DNA of 64,000 nt from Escherichia coli (lineage in GTDB: Bacteria > Pseudomonadota > Gammaproteobacteria > Enterobacterales > Enterobacteriaceae). Where the stretch lies: NCBI RefSeq assembly GCF_003334385.1, contig NZ_QOWN01000004.1. One strand, given 5' to 3'. Below are positions 23,641 to 49,136 of this stretch, in pieces. Within the stretch, counting starts at the first letter, position 1, and every line of letters begins with the position of its first letter. Under the pieces are notes generated by a model. It did no database searches. It worked only from the letters and a program-made list of their open reading frames with translations, and was not told the DNA's origin. The position numbers were made by a program, and so were the translations under genes.

Positions 23641-24187
23641 TTAATTTATGCAGCAGGTCCATCACTTGCTGCACCTCTTCCTGTGTGAGCGCCCCGTCTT
23701 TGGCCCATTGCACGCGACCATCCTTATCCAGCACCACTACAGCGGAACTTTCTTCATCCAGCTGCCAGGCACCGCGCGCGACGCCATTGCTATCGACAAT
23801 AAACTGCGACCAGGGATAAAGCTTTTTATTACTCTCCAGACTGCTGCGCACAAACATCCCTGAACCCGGAATCGCGTCGTCGGTGTTAACAATGGTGGTG
23901 GTCTGGTAGCGATCGTGCGGTAACTTCGCTGATTTAATCGCTTCAATCAGCGTCGCGTTTTTCTCTTTTGCAGAGGTGCGACCAGCAATATGTTGCAGTA
24001 CTCGCACTTTTCCCACTAACTGTGCGCTGTTCCAGGTTTTGTAGCTAAACTGATCTTTATCAAGCACCAACTCGCCTCGATCGGTAATGCCAATCGGCGG
24101 CACTCGCTGACCGGTTTCGAACTGATGTGCGGAAGCCATCATCGGCAACAGCAGGCAGGTGAGTGCCAGAATCTTGCGTAGGGTCAT
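23630..24187 (-). CDS. ytfJ: Periplasmic protein YtfJ
   Basis: 185 aa with signal peptide [20 protein letters not shown]; 3' end overlaps the cysQ 3' end by 11 bp. Confidence 0.9.
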
Positions 24188-35458: not shown

Positions 35459-36961
35459 ATGACGACTAACCAACACCAGGAGATCCTCCGCACCGAAGGA
35501 TTAAGTAAATTTTTCCCCGGCGTCAAAGCGTTAGACAACGTTGATTTCAGCCTGCGCCGCGGCGAAATCATGGCGCTGCTCGGTGAAAACGGGGCAGGAA
35601 AATCAACGCTAATCAAAGCATTAACTGGTGTATACCACGCCGATCGCGGCACCATCTGGCTGGAAGGCCAGGCTATCTCACCGAAAAATACCGCCCATGC
35701 ACAACAACTCGGTATCGGCACCGTCTATCAGGAAGTAAACCTGCTACCCAATATGTCGGTCGCTGATAATCTATTTATAGGCCGCGAACCCAAACGCTTC
35801 GGCCTTCTACGCCGCAAAGAGATGGAAAAGCGCGCCACCGAACTGATGGCATCTTACGGTTTCTCCCTCGACGTGCGCGAACCGCTCAACCGCTTTTCAG
35901 TCGCGATGCAGCAAATCGTCGCTATTTGCCGGGCTATCGATCTCTCTGCCAAAGTGCTGATCCTCGATGAACCCACCGCCAGTCTCGACACCCAGGAAGT
36001 GGAGTTACTGTTTGACCTGATGCGTCAGTTGCGCGATCGCGGCGTCAGCCTGATTTTTGTCACTCACTTTCTCGATCAGGTCTATCAGGTCAGCGATCGG
36101 ATCACCGTCTTACGCAACGGCAGTTTCGTAGGCTGTCGGGAAACGTGCGAGCTACCGCAGATCGAACTGGTAAAAATGATGCTGGGGCGCGAGCTGGATA
36201 CCCACGCGCTACAGCGTGCCGGGCGAACATTGTTGAGCGACAAACCCGTTGCCGCGTTCAAAAATTACGGCAAAAAAGGAACGATCGCACCGTTTGATCT
36301 CGAAGTACGCCCCGGCGAGATCGTCGGTCTGGCTGGATTGCTGGGATCAGGACGTACCGAAACCGCCGAAGTGATCTTCGGTATCAAACCTGCTGACAGC
36401 GGCACGGCGTTGATCAAAGGCAAACCGCAAAACCTGCGATCGCCACATCAGGCTTCGGTACTGGGCATTGGCTTCTGCCCGGAAGACAGGAAAACCGATG
36501 GCATCATCGCTGCCGCCTCGGTGCGGGAAAATATCATCCTCGCTCTCCAGGCCCAGCGCGGCTGGCTACGTCCCATTTCCCGCAAAGAACAGCAAGAGAT
36601 TGCCGAACGCTTTATCCGCCAGCTTGGCATTCGCACACCTTCAACTGAACAACCGATTGAATTTCTCTCTGGCGGCAATCAGCAAAAAGTGTTGCTTTCA
36701 CGTTGGCTACTGACCCGACCGCAATTTCTGATCCTTGATGAGCCAACTCGCGGCATTGATGTTGGTGCCCACGCCGAGATCATCCGCCTGATTGAAACGC
36801 TATGCGCCGATGGTCTGGCGCTGCTGGTGATCTCCTCCGAACTGGAAGAACTGGTGGGCTATGCCGACCGGGTGATCATCATGCGCGATCGCAAACAGGT
36901 GGCGGAGATCCCGCTGGCAGAGCTTTCCGTTCCGGCGATCATGAACGCCATTGCGGCGTAA
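35459..36961 (+). CDS. ytfR: Galactofuranose ABC transporter ATP-binding protein YtfR (tandem ABC domains)
   Basis: 500 aa; Walker A GENGAGKST and a second ABC domain GLLGSGRTE. Confidence 0.94.
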   Translation: MTTNQHQEILRTEGLSKFFPGVKALDNVDFSLRRGEIMALLGENGAGKSTLIKALTGVYHADRGTIWLEGQAISPKNTAHAQQLGIGTVYQEVNLLPNMSVADNLFIGREPKRFGLLRRKEMEKRATELMASYGFSLDVREPLNRFSVAMQQIVAICRAIDLSAKVLILDEPTASLDTQEVELLFDLMRQLRDRGVSLIFVTHFLDQVYQVSDRITVLRNGSFVGCRETCELPQIELVKMMLGRELDTHALQRAGRTLLSDKPVAAFKNYGKKGTIAPFDLEVRPGEIVGLAGLLGSGRTETAEVIFGIKPADSGTALIKGKPQNLRSPHQASVLGIGFCPEDRKTDGIIAAASVRENIILALQAQRGWLRPISRKEQQEIAERFIRQLGIRTPSTEQPIEFLSGGNQQKVLLSRWLLTRPQFLILDEPTRGIDVGAHAEIIRLIETLCADGLALLVISSELEELVGYADRVIIMRDRKQVAEIPLAELSVPAIMNAIAA

Positions 36962-40185: not shown

Positions 40186-41559
40186 ATGCGCATTCATATT
40201 TTAGGAATTTGTGGCACGTTTATGGGCGGTCTGGCGATGCTGGCGCGCCAGTTAGGCCATGAAGTAACGGGTTCGGACGCCAATGTGTATCCGCCGATGA
40301 GCACCTTACTTGAGAAGCAAGGCATTGAACTGATTCAGGGTTACGATGCCAGCCAGCTCGATCCGCAGCCGGATCTGGTGATTATTGGCAACGCCATGAC
40401 CCGTGGAAATCCGTGTGTGGAAGCGGTACTGGAAAAAAACATCCCTTATATGTCAGGTCCACAGTGGCTGCACGATTTTGTGCTGCGCGACCGCTGGGTG
40501 CTGGCCGTTGCCGGTACACATGGCAAAACCACCACCGCGGGAATGGCAACCTGGATTCTGGAACAGTGCGGTTACAAACCGGGATTTGTGATCGGCGGTG
40601 TGCCGGGGAACTTTGAGGTTTCGGCGCGTCTGGGCGAAAGCGACTTCTTTGTTATCGAAGCGGATGAGTATGACTGCGCCTTCTTCGACAAACGCTCTAA
40701 ATTTGTCCATTACTGCCCACGTACGCTGATCCTCAACAACCTTGAGTTCGATCACGCCGATATCTTTGACGACCTGAAAGCGATCCAGAAACAGTTCCAC
40801 CATCTGGTGCGTATCGTTCCGGGGCAGGGCCGTATTATCTGGCCAGAAAACGACATCAACCTGAAACAGACCATGGCGATGGGCTGCTGGAGCGAGCAGG
40901 AGCTGGTGGGTGAGCAGGGGCACTGGCAGGCGAAAAAGCTGACCACCGATGCTTCCGAATGGGAAGTTTTGCTGGATGGCGAAAAAGTGGGCGAAGTGAA
41001 ATGGTCGCTGGTAGGCGAACATAATATGCACAATGGCCTGATGGCGATTGCGGCGGCTCGCCATGTTGGTGTAGCGCCGGCAGATGCCGCTAACGCGCTG
41101 GGTTCGTTTATTAACGCTCGTCGCCGTCTGGAGTTGCGTGGTGAAGCGAATGGCGTCACGGTATATGACGATTTTGCCCATCACCCAACGGCGATTCTGG
41201 CAACGCTTGCGGCGCTGCGTGGCAAAGTTGGCGGTACGGCGCGCATTATTGCCGTGCTGGAACCGCGCTCGAATACCATGAAAATGGGGATCTGCAAAGA
41301 CGATCTGGCACCTTCATTAGGTCGTGCCGATGAAGTCTTCCTGCTGCAACCGGCGCATATTCCGTGGCAGGTGGCAGAAGTGGCAGAAGCCTGCGTTCAG
41401 CCTGCACACTGGAGTGGCGATGTGGATACGCTGGCAGATATGGTGGTGAAAACCGCTCAGCCTGGCGACCATATTCTGGTGATGAGCAACGGCGGTTTTG
41501 GTGGGATCCATCAGAAACTGCTGGATGGTCTGGCGAAGAAGGCGGAAGCCGCGCAGTAA
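40186..41559 (+). CDS. mpl: UDP-N-acetylmuramate:L-alanyl-gamma-D-glutamyl-meso-diaminopimelate ligase Mpl
   Basis: 457 aa, [31 protein letters not shown]...GTHGKTTT... Confidence 0.96.
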
Positions 41560-44326: not shown

Positions 44327-44791
44327 TCATCGCAAATGATGCACCACCTGATTGCTGCTGCCGCGCCAGATCAGGGAAGGGTCTTTTAAATCCTGCACAA
44401 ATTTGCCGTCGACCAGTACGTTAATCAAATCAACAACCTGCATTTGCGCAGCGTTGAGATCGTCGAGTTTATAGCCTGTCCACACCCAGATGTCTTTATC
44501 CGGACACTCGGCGCGGATGCGTTTTACCAGTTTCAGAATATCCGGCACGTTTTGCGGATGCAGCGGATCGCCGCCGGAGAGGGAAATCCCCTGGCGTTTG
44601 ATACGAGTGTCATTCAGATCGTTAATGATCTGGTCTTCCATTGCTTTGGTAAATGGCTGACCAGAATTTACCCGCCATGTGCTTTTGTTATAGCAACCGG
44701 GGCATTCATGAACACACCCGGAGACAAACAGGGTGCAGCGAGTGCCGGGGCCGTTGACGATGTCGACAGGATAGTACTGATGATAATTCAT
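44327..44791 (-). CDS. nrdG: Anaerobic ribonucleoside-triphosphate reductase activating protein NrdG (radical SAM)
   Basis: 154 aa, MNYHQYYPVDIVNGPGTRCTLFVSGCVHECPGCYNKSTW... Confidence 0.96.
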   Translation of the reverse strand: MNYHQYYPVDIVNGPGTRCTLFVSGCVHECPGCYNKSTWRVNSGQPFTKAMEDQIINDLNDTRIKRQGISLSGGDPLHPQNVPDILKLVKRIRAECPDKDIWVWTGYKLDDLNAAQMQVVDLINVLVDGKFVQDLKDPSLIWRGSSNQVVHHLR

Positions 44792-44948: not shown

Positions 44949-47087
44949 TTAACCTATCTGCCCATTTCCCAAATGTTTAACGCGGCGCTTAACTTCTTCC
45001 TGCTTACCGGCGTTAAATGGACGTGCATCCGGGCTACCTAAATATCCGCACACGCGGCGAGTTACCGACACACGGGAGGCGTCATGGTTACCACATTTCG
45101 GGCAAGTGAAGCCTTTGCTGGTGCACTCGAACTCACCGGTAAAGCCACACTCGTAGCACTCATCAATCGGTGTATTGGTGCCGTAATACGGTACATGCTG
45201 ATAGCTGTAATCCCAGACATCTTCCAGCGCCTTCAGGTTGTGCTGAATGTTTGGATACTCGCCGTAGCAAATGAAACCACCGTTCGCCAGCGGCGGGTAA
45301 GGCGCTTCAAAGTCGATCTTGTCGTACGGGTTCACCTTCTTCTCCACATCGAGGTGGAAACTGTTGGTGTAGTAACCTTTATCGGTCACGCCCGGCACCA
45401 CGCCAAACTCAGCAGTATCGAGACGGCAGAAGCGGTCGCACAGGTTTTCACTCGGCGTGCTGTAGAGACTGAAACCATAACCCGTTTCTTCTTTCCACTG
45501 ATCCACTGCCTGACGCAGACGTTCAACAATGGCGATACCTTTCGCGCGAAGCTGCTCGTTGTCGTAAACATGCTCGCCGCCGAACAGCGCGTTAATGGTT
45601 TCGTGGATGCCGATGTAACCCAGCGAAATAGACGCACGACCGTTTTTGAAGATTTCAGAAACATCATCGTCAGCATTGAGACGCACGCCACAAGCACCTT
45701 CCATATAGAGGATCGGGGCCACGCGCGCTTTCACGCCTTCGAGACGAGCGATACGGGTCATCAGCGCCTTACGTGCCAGCACCAGACGTTCATCCAGCAG
45801 CTTCCAGAAGGTGGCTTCATCGCCTTTTGCTTCCAGAGCAATACGCGGCAGGTTCAGGCTGATCACGCCGAGGTTGTTACGACCATCGTGGATCTGCTCG
45901 CCGTTTTCATTTTCCCACACGCCGAGGAAGCTGCGGCAGCCCATCGGGGTTTTAAACGAACCGGTGACTTTCACTACCTGATCGTAGTTCAGGATATCCG
46001 GATACATGCGCTTGCTTGCGCACTCCAGCGCCAGCTGTTTGATGTCGTAGTTCGGATCGCCTTTTTTATGGTTCAGACCATCGCGAATCGCAAACACCAG
46101 TTTCGGGAACACCGCAGTTTTACGGTTTTTACCGAGACCTGCGATACGGTTACGCAGGATAGATTCCTGAATCAGGCGCGATTCCCAGCTGGTGCCCAGA
46201 CCAAAACCAAAAGTTACAAACGGCGTTTGACCGTTGGCGGTATGCAGGGTGTTTACTTCGTACTCCAGCGACTGGAAGGCATCGTAGCACTCTTTAATGG
46301 TACGAGAGTTAGCGTAGCCTTCTGCGTCCGGGATGCTCCACTCTTCTGCGGTCTTGCGATGTTTGTTGTAGCTGGCGGTGACAAACGGTGCCAGCACTTC
46401 ATCGATACGGTTAATGGTGGTGCCGCCATAAATATGGCTGGCAACCTGAGCAATAATCTGCGCAGTTACCGCGGTTGCCGTTGAGATCGACTTCGGCGGT
46501 TCAATCTCGGCGTTCCCCATTTTAAAGCCCTGGGTCAGCATGCCTTTCAGGTCGATCAACATGCAGTTGAACATCGGGAAAAACGGTGAGTAATCGAGAT
46601 CGTGATAGTGAATATCGCCACGCTCATGTGCCTGCACCACGTCACGCGGCAGCAGGTGCTGACGTGCATAGTGTTTAGCCACGATCCCGGCCAGCAGGTC
46701 GCGCTGGGTTGGAATCACCTTGCTGTCTTTGTTGGCGTTTTCGTTGAGTAACGAGGCGTTGGTCTGCTCGACCAGACCACGGATCTCCTGGTTCAGGCGA
46801 CCGCGTTTTTCACGTTCAATGTCGCGATCGTGACGGTACTCGATGTAAGCACGAGCCAGTTGTTTGTATGGACCCGACATCAGCTGGTTTTCAACTGCGG
46901 TCTGGATCTCATTGATATCCACCTGGTTGCGGCCCTGCATCTGCTCGCTGACAACCGCGGCAACAGTGGCGCAATAATCGGCATCATCGACTTCCGCTGC
47001 TTTAGCTGCACGCAGAATCGCTTCTTTGATGCGCTCTGATTTAAACGGCACTTTGCAGCCGTCTCGTTTCATCACATGCGGTGTCAT
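44949..47087 (-). CDS. nrdD: Anaerobic ribonucleoside-triphosphate reductase NrdD (glycyl radical enzyme)
   Basis: 712 aa; ATP-cone N-terminus MTPHVMKRDGCKVPFKSERIKEAI...; C-terminal Zn ribbon and glycyl radical motif ...RVCGYLG... Confidence 0.97.
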   Translation of the reverse strand: MTPHVMKRDGCKVPFKSERIKEAILRAAKAAEVDDADYCATVAAVVSEQMQGRNQVDINEIQTAVENQLMSGPYKQLARAYIEYRHDRDIEREKRGRLNQEIRGLVEQTNASLLNENANKDSKVIPTQRDLLAGIVAKHYARQHLLPRDVVQAHERGDIHYHDLDYSPFFPMFNCMLIDLKGMLTQGFKMGNAEIEPPKSISTATAVTAQIIAQVASHIYGGTTINRIDEVLAPFVTASYNKHRKTAEEWSIPDAEGYANSRTIKECYDAFQSLEYEVNTLHTANGQTPFVTFGFGLGTSWESRLIQESILRNRIAGLGKNRKTAVFPKLVFAIRDGLNHKKGDPNYDIKQLALECASKRMYPDILNYDQVVKVTGSFKTPMGCRSFLGVWENENGEQIHDGRNNLGVISLNLPRIALEAKGDEATFWKLLDERLVLARKALMTRIARLEGVKARVAPILYMEGACGVRLNADDDVSEIFKNGRASISLGYIGIHETINALFGGEHVYDNEQLRAKGIAIVERLRQAVDQWKEETGYGFSLYSTPSENLCDRFCRLDTAEFGVVPGVTDKGYYTNSFHLDVEKKVNPYDKIDFEAPYPPLANGGFICYGEYPNIQHNLKALEDVWDYSYQHVPYYGTNTPIDECYECGFTGEFECTSKGFTCPKCGNHDASRVSVTRRVCGYLGSPDARPFNAGKQEEVKRRVKHLGNGQIG

Positions 47088-47322
47088 GATCGCTCCATAT
47101 TTTTAAGAACAGGTTATCCACAGAAATTGGGAAAGGCGTTTTCCGGTTTTTTCGTTTCGTTTTCCGGTGCTTTCCGCAATCGCCATCCGCTTATCCACAA
47201 CGCCGCACCTTTTTCGTGGGGAGCTGTAGTAGCAATTATAGTCGATTAATACAACATATTGGGTTGGGACGCATTTTAAAGTCTATATATAGTGCTTTGC
47301 ATCAAGGATGTTTGAACTTTTT

Positions 47323-47336
47323 TTGATGTAGCTCAA
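47323..47336. promoter_or_regulatory. Candidate FNR box in the nrdDG promoter region
   Basis: ttgat-gtag-ctcaa matches the FNR consensus TTGAT-N4-ATCAA at 9 of 10 positions, ~240 bp upstream of the nrdD start. Confidence 0.4.
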
Positions 47337-47439
47337 AGTAAAAAGCAGAGCGTACGGATGACGGGCGCTACAGCGTTATGTAAATTTTTTAATGAATTTG
47401 CTGGTTGAAAAATCAACAAAAACAACATGCTGACAGACA

Positions 47440-47475
47440 AAACCCCGGAATGACCGGCATTACCGGGGCTTAGGG
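47440..47475 (-). terminator. Rho-independent terminator of treBC
   Basis: On the minus strand: ccccggtaatgccggtcattccgggg followed by ttttg. Confidence 0.75.
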
Positions 47476-47480
47476 AAGAT

Positions 47481-49136
47481 TTACTTCTGTAACCACCAGA
47501 CAGCCTCAAAAGGCCGTAAATTCATGGCACAGGGTTGTGGTGAGGCTTCTTCGTAGTTATGCATCACAAGCTGCCAGTTGCCGCGCATTTGCCCTGGCTG
47601 CCAGGGTTGGATCTCACGGCTAAGGTTGGCAATGACCAGCAAGGTTTGCCCCTTCCATTCACGGCGATAGCACCACAATACAGGGCTGTTTGGCAGCAGA
47701 TCCTGGTAATTGCCCCATGTCAGGATGGCTTCCTGCTTACGCAGTGCGATTAACTTTTGGTAGGTGTAAAACACCGAGGAATCATCGGCCAGCGCGGCTT
47801 CTACGTTGATTTGTTGATAGTTATCGCCCAGGCCAATCCACGGTTCGCCAGCCGTAAACCCGGCATTATCGCCGTTGCTCCATTGCATGGGCGTGCGGCT
47901 GTTGTCACGGGATTTACTGGCGAGGATTGCCAATAACTCGTCGGCATCACGCCCATCGTTGCGCAGCTCGGCAAACATATTGAGGCTCTCCACGTCGCGA
48001 TAGTCAGTAATGCGCGTGAAATGCGGGTTGGTCATGCCAATCTCTTCGCCCTGGTAGATATACGGCGTTCCCTGCATGCCATGCAGCACCATCGCTAGCA
48101 TTTTTGCCGCAGGCACGCGGTATTCACCTTCATCACCAAAGCGAGAAACAATGCGCGGCTGATCGTGGTTACACCAGAACAAGGCATTCCATGCTACGTT
48201 GTGCATTCCTTGTTGCCAGTGGCGGAACAATGTTTTCAACGCCACAAAGTCAGGTTTAGCCAGCGTCCATTTTTCACCACCGGGATAATCGACCTTCAGG
48301 TGATGAAAATTAAAGGTCATCGATAATTCACTGCCTGCCAGTGCCGCGTATCGCTGGCAATGCTCAAGGCTGGTGGAGGACATTTCACCTACGGTCATTA
48401 ACCCGCGTGGCGTAAACACATCGCGGTTCATCTCGTGCAAAAACTCGTGTGCTCGTGGCCCGTCGGTGTAGAAGCGACGCCCGTCGCCATCCAGGTCTTC
48501 AGGGAAACGCGGGTCTTTGGAGATCAGATTCACCACATCCAGGCGCAACCCATCGACCCCACGATCGGCCCAGAATTCACAGACTTTTTTCAGCTCTGCG
48601 CGTACCGCTGGATTCTCCCAGTTGAGATCCGCCTGTTCTGGTGCAAAGAGATGCAAATAGTACTGTTCGCTTTCCGCATGCCAGCGCCACGCACTACCGC
48701 CAAATTTTGAACGCCAGTTATTCGGTGGCGTTTCTGGTTCGCCATCGCGCCAGATATAAAACTGGCGGTAAGGGCTTTCTTTGTTCAGCGCCTCGCGAAA
48801 CCAGGCATGTTGGGTAGAGGTATGGTTAAACACCATATCGAGAATGATACGAATCCCGCGCGATTTTGCCTGCGTCACCAGTTCGTCAAAATCGTCCAGC
48901 GTGCCGTAGGTGGGATCAATCGCCGTATAGTTCGCTACGTCGTAACCGTTATCGACCTGGGGAGAGACATAAAAGGGGGTTAGCCAGATGGCATCAACGC
49001 CCAGTTTATGCAGATAGTCCAGGCGTTGGATAACGCCACGTAAATCGCCGGTACCGCTACCCGTGGTGTCCTGAAAACTCTTTGGATAAATCTGGTAGAT
49101 AACGCCGTTTTGCCACCAGTGGGGAAGATTAGTCAT
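47481..49136 (-). CDS. treC: Trehalose-6-phosphate hydrolase TreC (GH13)
   Basis: 551 aa from MTNLPHWWQNGVIYQIYPKSFQDTTGSGTGDLRGV...; the track ORF extends 49 codons upstream into treB. Confidence 0.96.
   Translation of the reverse strand: MTNLPHWWQNGVIYQIYPKSFQDTTGSGTGDLRGVIQRLDYLHKLGVDAIWLTPFYVSPQVDNGYDVANYTAIDPTYGTLDDFDELVTQAKSRGIRIILDMVFNHTSTQHAWFREALNKESPYRQFYIWRDGEPETPPNNWRSKFGGSAWRWHAESEQYYLHLFAPEQADLNWENPAVRAELKKVCEFWADRGVDGLRLDVVNLISKDPRFPEDLDGDGRRFYTDGPRAHEFLHEMNRDVFTPRGLMTVGEMSSTSLEHCQRYAALAGSELSMTFNFHHLKVDYPGGEKWTLAKPDFVALKTLFRHWQQGMHNVAWNALFWCNHDQPRIVSRFGDEGEYRVPAAKMLAMVLHGMQGTPYIYQGEEIGMTNPHFTRITDYRDVESLNMFAELRNDGRDADELLAILASKSRDNSRTPMQWSNGDNAGFTAGEPWIGLGDNYQQINVEAALADDSSVFYTYQKLIALRKQEAILTWGNYQDLLPNSPVLWCYRREWKGQTLLVIANLSREIQPWQPGQMRGNWQLVMHNYEEASPQPCAMNLRPFEAVWWLQK

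Follow-up and report, generated by a model that had tools for sequence, protein, structure and literature searches.

The window analyzed here, a stretch of 64,000 nucleotides from Escherichia coli, carries upstream of the operon nrdDG a 14-mer (47323-47336) that an initial annotation, made from the sequence alone, flagged as a candidate FNR box. The question raised by this locus is whether the 14-mer is a genuine FNR operator and, if so, which role it has at the nrdDG promoter. We conclude that it is almost certainly FNR-2, the high-affinity distal operator (centre at -64.5) through which FNR acts on the sigma-70 nrdDG promoter of E. coli. The site is a switch for making deoxyribonucleotides without oxygen in E. 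coli. The features of the locus are listed in Table 1.

Table 1. Positions in the 64-kb window of the nrdDG genes and of the elements of their promoter region.
Feature	Position	Strand	Description
FNR site 2 (FNR-2)	47323..47336	-	TTGAGCTACATCAA in nrdD sense, centre -64.5; reported as high-affinity and essential
FNR site 1 (FNR-1)	47292..47305	-	TTGATGCAAAGCAC in nrdD sense, centre -33.5; weak auxiliary site
NrdR box 1	47280..47295	-	GCACTATATATAGACT
-10 hexamer TAAAAT, probable	47273..47278	-	Read from the sequence
Transcription start (+1, A)	47265	-	Back-calculated from the published -64.5 and -33.5 centres
NrdR box 2	47249..47264	-	ACCCAATATGTTGTAT, +2..+17
nrdD, anaerobic ribonucleoside-triphosphate reductase	44949..47087	-	ORF and RefSeq annotation; first gene of the regulated operon
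nrdG, activating enzyme	44327..44791	-	Second gene of the operon

The window is part of the E. coli chromosome. A 561-bp query around the 14-mer had a match in 5426 of 5426 E. coli genomes, with 100% identity to many of them, and the genes annotated in RefSeq beneath these matches are treC and nrdD. The ORF coordinates (nrdD ATG at 47087, end of the treC stop codon at 47481) leave a treC-nrdD spacer of 393 bp (47088-47480), which is the size that the initial annotation gave for the upstream region. When aligned with K-12 MG1655, this spacer differs at 3 of its 393 bases (47429, 47376 and 47316), all of them outside the FNR and NrdR sites. The last of these, between the two FNR sites, is a T here and a C in K-12 (nrdD sense), and is a common polymorphism of E. 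coli. The 61-bp segment spanning the two sites is identical in 2999 of the 5426 genomes and has 95-99% identity in another 2421. The sampled rows of the latter band have one mismatch each, and 47316 is the sole difference of K-12 in this segment.

The treC side of the spacer has a GC-rich hairpin, recognized by eye (CCCCGG...CCGGGG followed by TTTT, 47439-47468 on the minus strand), 13 nt past the stop codon of treC. This hairpin probably terminates treBC and shields the nrdDG promoter from transcription that comes from upstream. It was not called by the terminator scan, which may have missed it owing to a long or structured loop. An Rfam scan of 46900-47700 (E <= 1) returned only two meaningless sub-threshold matches (SNORD5 and a Pyrobaculum antisense RNA), and hence identified no known RNA element in the nrdD leader.

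On the plus strand the flagged 14-mer reads TTGATGTAGCTCAA, and on the minus strand, i.e., in the sense of nrdD, it reads TTGAGCTACATCAA. It does match the FNR consensus TTGAT-N4-ATCAA at 9 of the 10 specified positions, as had been claimed. Taken alone, this count is within chance: the window has five sites with at most one mismatch to the consensus for 2.67 expected, and 18 of 100 shuffled sequences reached five. We also scored the window with a weight matrix made from 62 ChIP-bound high-quality FNR sites (Table S6 of Myers 2013, PMC3688515), with the nrdD site excluded from the training. By this measure the 14-mer is the best match among the ~64,000 positions of the window (17.8-17.9 bits), and thus the top match of the region 47088-47480, where the initial annotation had proposed such a scan as a check. 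From the exact score distribution we obtained p = 4.4e-7 per position, which corresponds to 0.028 expected occurrences per 64 kb and 0.0002-0.0005 in the intergenic region. Within the full set of 63 high-quality sites with ChIP binding, it takes rank 11. FNR-type half-sites read TTGA...TCAA, whereas those of CRP read GTGA...TCAC. The 14-mer reads TTGA-GCTACA-TCAA, and its positions 2 and 13 hold the FNR-type T and A, respectively.

Five other good matches to the matrix were found in the window, at 2452-2465, 24050-24063, 36410-36423, 40742-40755 and 57879-57892, within yjfY, ytfJ, ytfR, mpl and yjgI, respectively. The first reaches 17 bits and the last has two perfect half-sites. All five predicted sites are without an FNR ChIP-seq peak, and most lie beneath Fis, H-NS or IHF signal (Myers 2013, PMC3688515). 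The match at 2452 is assigned to yjfY on the basis of Table S6 of Myers 2013; colinearity with K-12 would have led to the ulaR region, which is the wrong place. The FNR-like sites of yjfY and ytfJ (2452 and 24050) are 21,598 bp apart here, compared with 14,464 bp in the K-12 coordinates of Myers Table S6. This interval is thus about 7.1 kb longer than in K-12, and the strain carries additional DNA somewhere within it.

The operator itself is a known one. A J Biol Chem 2023 article (PMC10425943), which cites Roca et al. 2008 and Boston and Atlung 2003, describes a pair of FNR motifs in the E. coli nrdDG promoter, of which site 1 is centred at -33.5 and site 2 at -64.5. According to the same article, FNR binding in gel-shift assays is stronger at site 2, and this site is necessary and sufficient for the anaerobic activation of nrdDG. 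SEC-SAXS data place [4Fe-4S]-FNR dimers on both sites (PMC10425943), and the 54-mer of that study, TACTTTGAGCTACATCAAAAAAAGCTCAAACATCCTTGATGCAAAGCACTATAT, equals window positions 47342..47289 (minus strand) except for one spacer base. The nrdD entry in Table S6 of Myers 2013 (PMC3688515) is exactly TTGATGTAGCTCAA, with a PatSer score of 15.68 and a ln p of -14.45. The FNR ChIP-seq peak at nrdD was called by every method (Table S5 of the same study), and nrdD is also an FNR target in an independent ChIP-chip study.

Comparison with the mapped nrdD sites thus shows that the flagged 14-mer is identical to the published FNR-2, with no displacement to other coordinates. Its suggested consistency with anaerobic induction of nrdDG is borne out by the published activation through this operator (PMC10425943). 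FNR binding to the site 2 sequence and the need for site 2 have been demonstrated in this literature. Our analysis establishes the identity of the window with the published sequence, the statistical distinctness of the site and its conservation. The feature is therefore already known and brings no new biology: it was characterized in 2003-2008 and re-examined by ChIP-seq (2013) and SAXS (2023).

The aerobic/anaerobic ratios in Table S12 of Myers 2013 (PMC3688515) are 0.36 for nrdD and 0.27 for nrdG. Taking the direction of the ratio from frd and dcuB, the two genes are about 3- to 4-fold higher anaerobically. In the same study, nrdD has a ChIP peak and no FNR-dependent change of expression in glucose minimal medium (Category 3, Table 2). 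Myers 2013 reports that FNR activated nrdD in another dataset only with nitrate or nitrite (PMC3688515).

The initial annotation stated that a second expected FNR site was not clearly identifiable by eye. This was a fair remark: the second site exists, and was missed by eye because it is a degenerate match of only 10.7 bits. It reads GTGCTTTGCATCAA on the plus strand, and ranks second in the intergenic region and 12th in the window by the weight matrix. Its centre lies exactly 31 bp downstream of that of site 2. Besides these two, the scan of 47088-47480 found no FNR site above 2.7 bits.

The positions of both sites fit the published promoter. With centres at 47329.5 for site 2 and 47298.5 for site 1, the two published offsets lead to one and the same +1 base, which is a check of internal consistency, and to an nrdD leader of 178 nt. 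A scan for consensus promoters in 47000-47560 called none on the minus strand, and there is no acceptable -35 before TAAAAT, as expected for an activator-dependent promoter. Since no promoter was called by the scan, we infer the -10 and the +1 from the sequence and the published offsets. The T, the A and the final T of the -10 are nearly invariant in 48 Enterobacteriaceae sequences. The centre of site 1 is 20.5 bp from the start of TAAAAT. The canonical positions of FNR are -61.5, -71.5, -82.5 and so on at class I promoters and -41.5 at class II promoters. Neither -64.5 nor -33.5 is among these values. No nrdDG site lies at the class II position (-41.5 +/- 1, over the -35), so that the promoter is not assigned to class II, and the published centre of site 2 is 3 bp off -61.5, given the back-calculated start. 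For comparison, 19 of the 23 mapped FNR-activated promoters have their site at -41.5 +/- 4 (Myers 2013, PMC3688515).

The same region binds NrdR. The published NrdR-binding 57-mer (PMC12176259) equals window positions 47300..47244 and holds a pair of boxes with a 15-bp linker that carries the -10. Box 1 overlaps FNR site 1 by 4 bp, and an overlap of an FNR site with an NrdR box has been noted for Salmonella (PMC2892513). Just downstream of box 2 we observed a perfect -10 consensus, TATAAT (47235-47240, minus strand, +26..+31), within GACTATAAT. Other Enterobacteriaceae retain it in the form CTAnnAT (TACAAT or TATTAT). This element could be a second promoter occluded by NrdR, or simply conserved leader sequence.

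To study the conservation of this arrangement, we took one genome per species with NrdD, which resulted in 80 Enterobacterales loci. In all 80, the 500 bp before nrdD contain a match to the FNR matrix that reaches at least 10.7 bits. The window has 12 positions of this strength in its 64 kb, which amounts to a background of about 0.09 per 500 bp. A pair of sites with a spacing of exactly 31 bp is found in 47 loci in addition to the window. Of these 47, 45 are counted as Enterobacteriaceae from their names or their place in the hit list, and the other two are MAGs labelled only Proteobacteria (L028) and Enterobacteriaceae (L046). Conservation by column in the 48 sequences is highest at the half-sites TTG and ATCAA, at site 1, at both NrdR boxes and at the T-A---T of the -10. 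A TTTTTAC tract adjoining site 2 upstream (47338-47344, minus strand) is nearly invariant in the same sequences, equal in this to the FNR half-sites. It could be an extended flank of the operator, an UP-like contact for the alpha C-terminal domain, or a bend. Two loci, Escherichia sp. ESNIH1 (L029) and the Enterobacteriaceae MAG UBA7338 (L044), have their FNR sites only 137 and 106 bp from the nrdD start, compared with about 240 and 210 bp. About 100 bp of the leader are absent in both.

Yersinia, Serratia, Pectobacterium, Dickeya, Brenneria, Hafnia, Edwardsiella, Rahnella and Budvicia have a single FNR site, of the distal type. Its centre lies 28-29, 40-42 or 51 bp (once 76 bp) upstream of the centre of NrdR box 1; site 2 of E. 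coli is 42 bp upstream of it. These steps of ~11 bp, or one helical turn, suggest that the helical phase of the distal site matters. They would fit activation from one face of the DNA and would mark the distal site as the ancestral and universal one, which is consistent with its essential role in E. coli. The -10 hexamer is found at the same offset between the NrdR boxes in only some of the species outside Enterobacteriaceae, and we therefore claim no absolute FNR positions for those families.

Within Enterobacteriaceae the relative strength of the two sites varies. In 41 of the other 47 tandem loci, the better match is the proximal site, TTGATGCAAATCAC, with 15.4 bits, compared with 10.5-15.9 bits for the distal TTGTyCTnnATCAA. 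In Escherichia (the window, L002 and L003), the distal site has an A at position 4 (TTGAG) and reaches 17.8-18.4 bits, while the proximal site has a G instead of a T at the symmetry-related position 11 (AGCAC) and 10.7 bits or less. The distal site of Escherichia is thus stronger, and its proximal site weaker, than in most relatives. This is a small comparative point that is absent from the papers on nrdDG consulted.

How do these observations weigh on other explanations of the 14-mer? One might have regarded it as a chance match to the consensus with no regulatory role, given that sites with at most one mismatch are not enriched in the window (18 of 100 shuffles reach the five observed, for 2.67 expected) and that the five other good matrix matches are silent in ChIP. 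Yet, the 14-mer is the top match of the window, with a score expected 0.028 times per 64 kb, it lies beneath an FNR ChIP-seq peak (Myers 2013, PMC3688515), and gel-shift, mutational and SAXS data exist for the exact sequence (PMC10425943). It is also conserved in the 80 loci at phased distances from the NrdR boxes. Together, matrix rank, ChIP peak, binding data and conservation effectively refute a chance match, to which we attach virtually no probability. It is slightly less improbable, and still very unlikely, that the 14-mer is the operator of CRP or of another protein of the CRP/FNR family instead of FNR. The TGA-N6-TCA core is common to CRP and FNR sites, and the two kinds of sites overlap at some promoters (Myers 2013, PMC3688515). 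However, both half-sites are TTGA/TCAA and not the GTGA/TCAC that specifies CRP, and the FNR matrix gives 17.8 bits. Binding of FNR is documented by ChIP and in vitro (PMC3688515, PMC10425943). Moreover, the regulators given for nrdDG are H-NS, Fnr and NrdR (PMC12176259), and CRP was not found at nrdDG in the literature consulted.

A different objection accepts that the 14-mer binds FNR and questions its rank: it might be auxiliary in this strain, with the proximal site, or another unseen one, as the main activator site. A site near the -35 is closer to the polymerase, and the proximal TTGATGCAAATCAC is the better match in most other tandem loci (41 of 47, at 15.4 bits). In Escherichia, however, it is the proximal site that is degraded (AGCAC, 10.7 bits) and the distal one that is the best match of the window. 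According to the published mutational data for E. coli (PMC10425943), site 2 is both required and sufficient, and neither FNR site of the window differs from that of K-12. Besides, only a site of the distal type is present outside Enterobacteriaceae. We consider an auxiliary role highly improbable, and retain the 14-mer as the distal FNR operator on which activation depends.

With the 14-mer as FNR-2, activation may proceed as follows. Without oxygen, dimeric [4Fe-4S]-FNR would bind site 2, and a second dimer would occupy the weak proximal site 1. As 31 bp correspond to about three helical turns, both dimers would be on the same face of the DNA. The two dimers would then bring in RNA polymerase, or activate it, at this promoter, which has TAAAAT as its -10 and lacks a usable -35, and transcription would run from about 47265 through the 178-nt leader into nrdD and nrdG. 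The contribution of site 1 would be a boost only, and an NrdR step would involve box 1, which overlaps this site. Concerning the contact with the polymerase, we infer that it is class I-like, via the alpha C-terminal domain; the authors of the SAXS study call the FNR activation mechanism at nrdDG "a remaining mystery" (PMC10425943).

The leader has other features that caught our attention. It contains two perfect DnaA-box 9-mers, TTATCCACA, at 47114-47122 and 47191-47199 (plus strand, antisense to nrdD). They are the only two in the window, for 0.48 expected per 64 kb, and are 77 bp apart (about +144..+152 and +67..+75). A DnaA ChIP-seq study has already published a peak upstream of nrdD, with a double box tTTAAGAACAggTTATCCACAg that equals window positions 47101-47122 (PMC11317965). 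In Yersinia, Serratia, Pectobacterium, Dickeya, Hafnia, Edwardsiella and Budvicia, a sense-oriented TTATCCACAnnnnCATCCACA directly follows NrdR box 2. Between the two DnaA boxes of the window there is a direct repeat, CGTTTTCCGGTkbTTTC, at 47137-47153 and 47158-47174 (plus strand; 17 nt, 88% identity, 21-bp spacing). Read as mRNA, it gives the purine-rich ...ACCGGAAAACG... twice.

The difference in site strength between Escherichia and other Enterobacteriaceae may bear on the interplay with NrdR. One tentative scenario, which goes beyond the sequence comparison and which we regard as possible but rather doubtful, is that the ranking of the two FNR sites was reset in the Escherichia lineage through reciprocal changes at positions 4 and 11 (distal TTGTy to TTGAG, proximal ATCAC to AGCAC). 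Activation in E. coli would have become distal-dependent, with less direct competition between FNR and NrdR, while the proximal site that overlaps the NrdR box would be dominant in most other Enterobacteriaceae. Together with the ~11-bp steps, the scenario would make a face-dependent, non-canonical (-64.5), class I-like mode the ancestral one.

Finally, the locus can be compared with known systems. It shares with the canonical class I and class II promoters (narG, nirB, dmsA) the operator consensus, the regulator and a sigma-70 promoter that has a weak -35 and is activated anaerobically, but its site centres are 3 bp and 8 bp off and two dimers are used. The nrdDG promoter of K-12 (PMC10425943) is the same locus in another strain: both 14-mers and the 31 bp between their centres are identical, as are the -10, the leader and the NrdR boxes, and the differences are one SNP between the sites (47316) and two upstream (47429 and 47376), none in a known site. 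A more distant counterpart is the Anr/Dnr box of Pseudomonas aeruginosa nrdDG, which is likened here in broad terms, by its description in PMC5645315. It is likewise an FNR-family box over a class III ribonucleotide reductase operon and is linked to anaerobic growth, but the regulator is a different paralogue and the organism is another one. Beyond the species, there are the nrdDG loci of Salmonella (PMC2892513), Citrobacter, Klebsiella, Enterobacter and other Enterobacteriaceae. They too have tandem FNR sites 31 bp apart, a proximal site over NrdR box 1 and a TAaAAT -10, and differ from Escherichia in the reversed strength of the matches (proximal 15.4 and distal 10.5-15.9 bits, against 10.7 and 17.8-18.4 bits).
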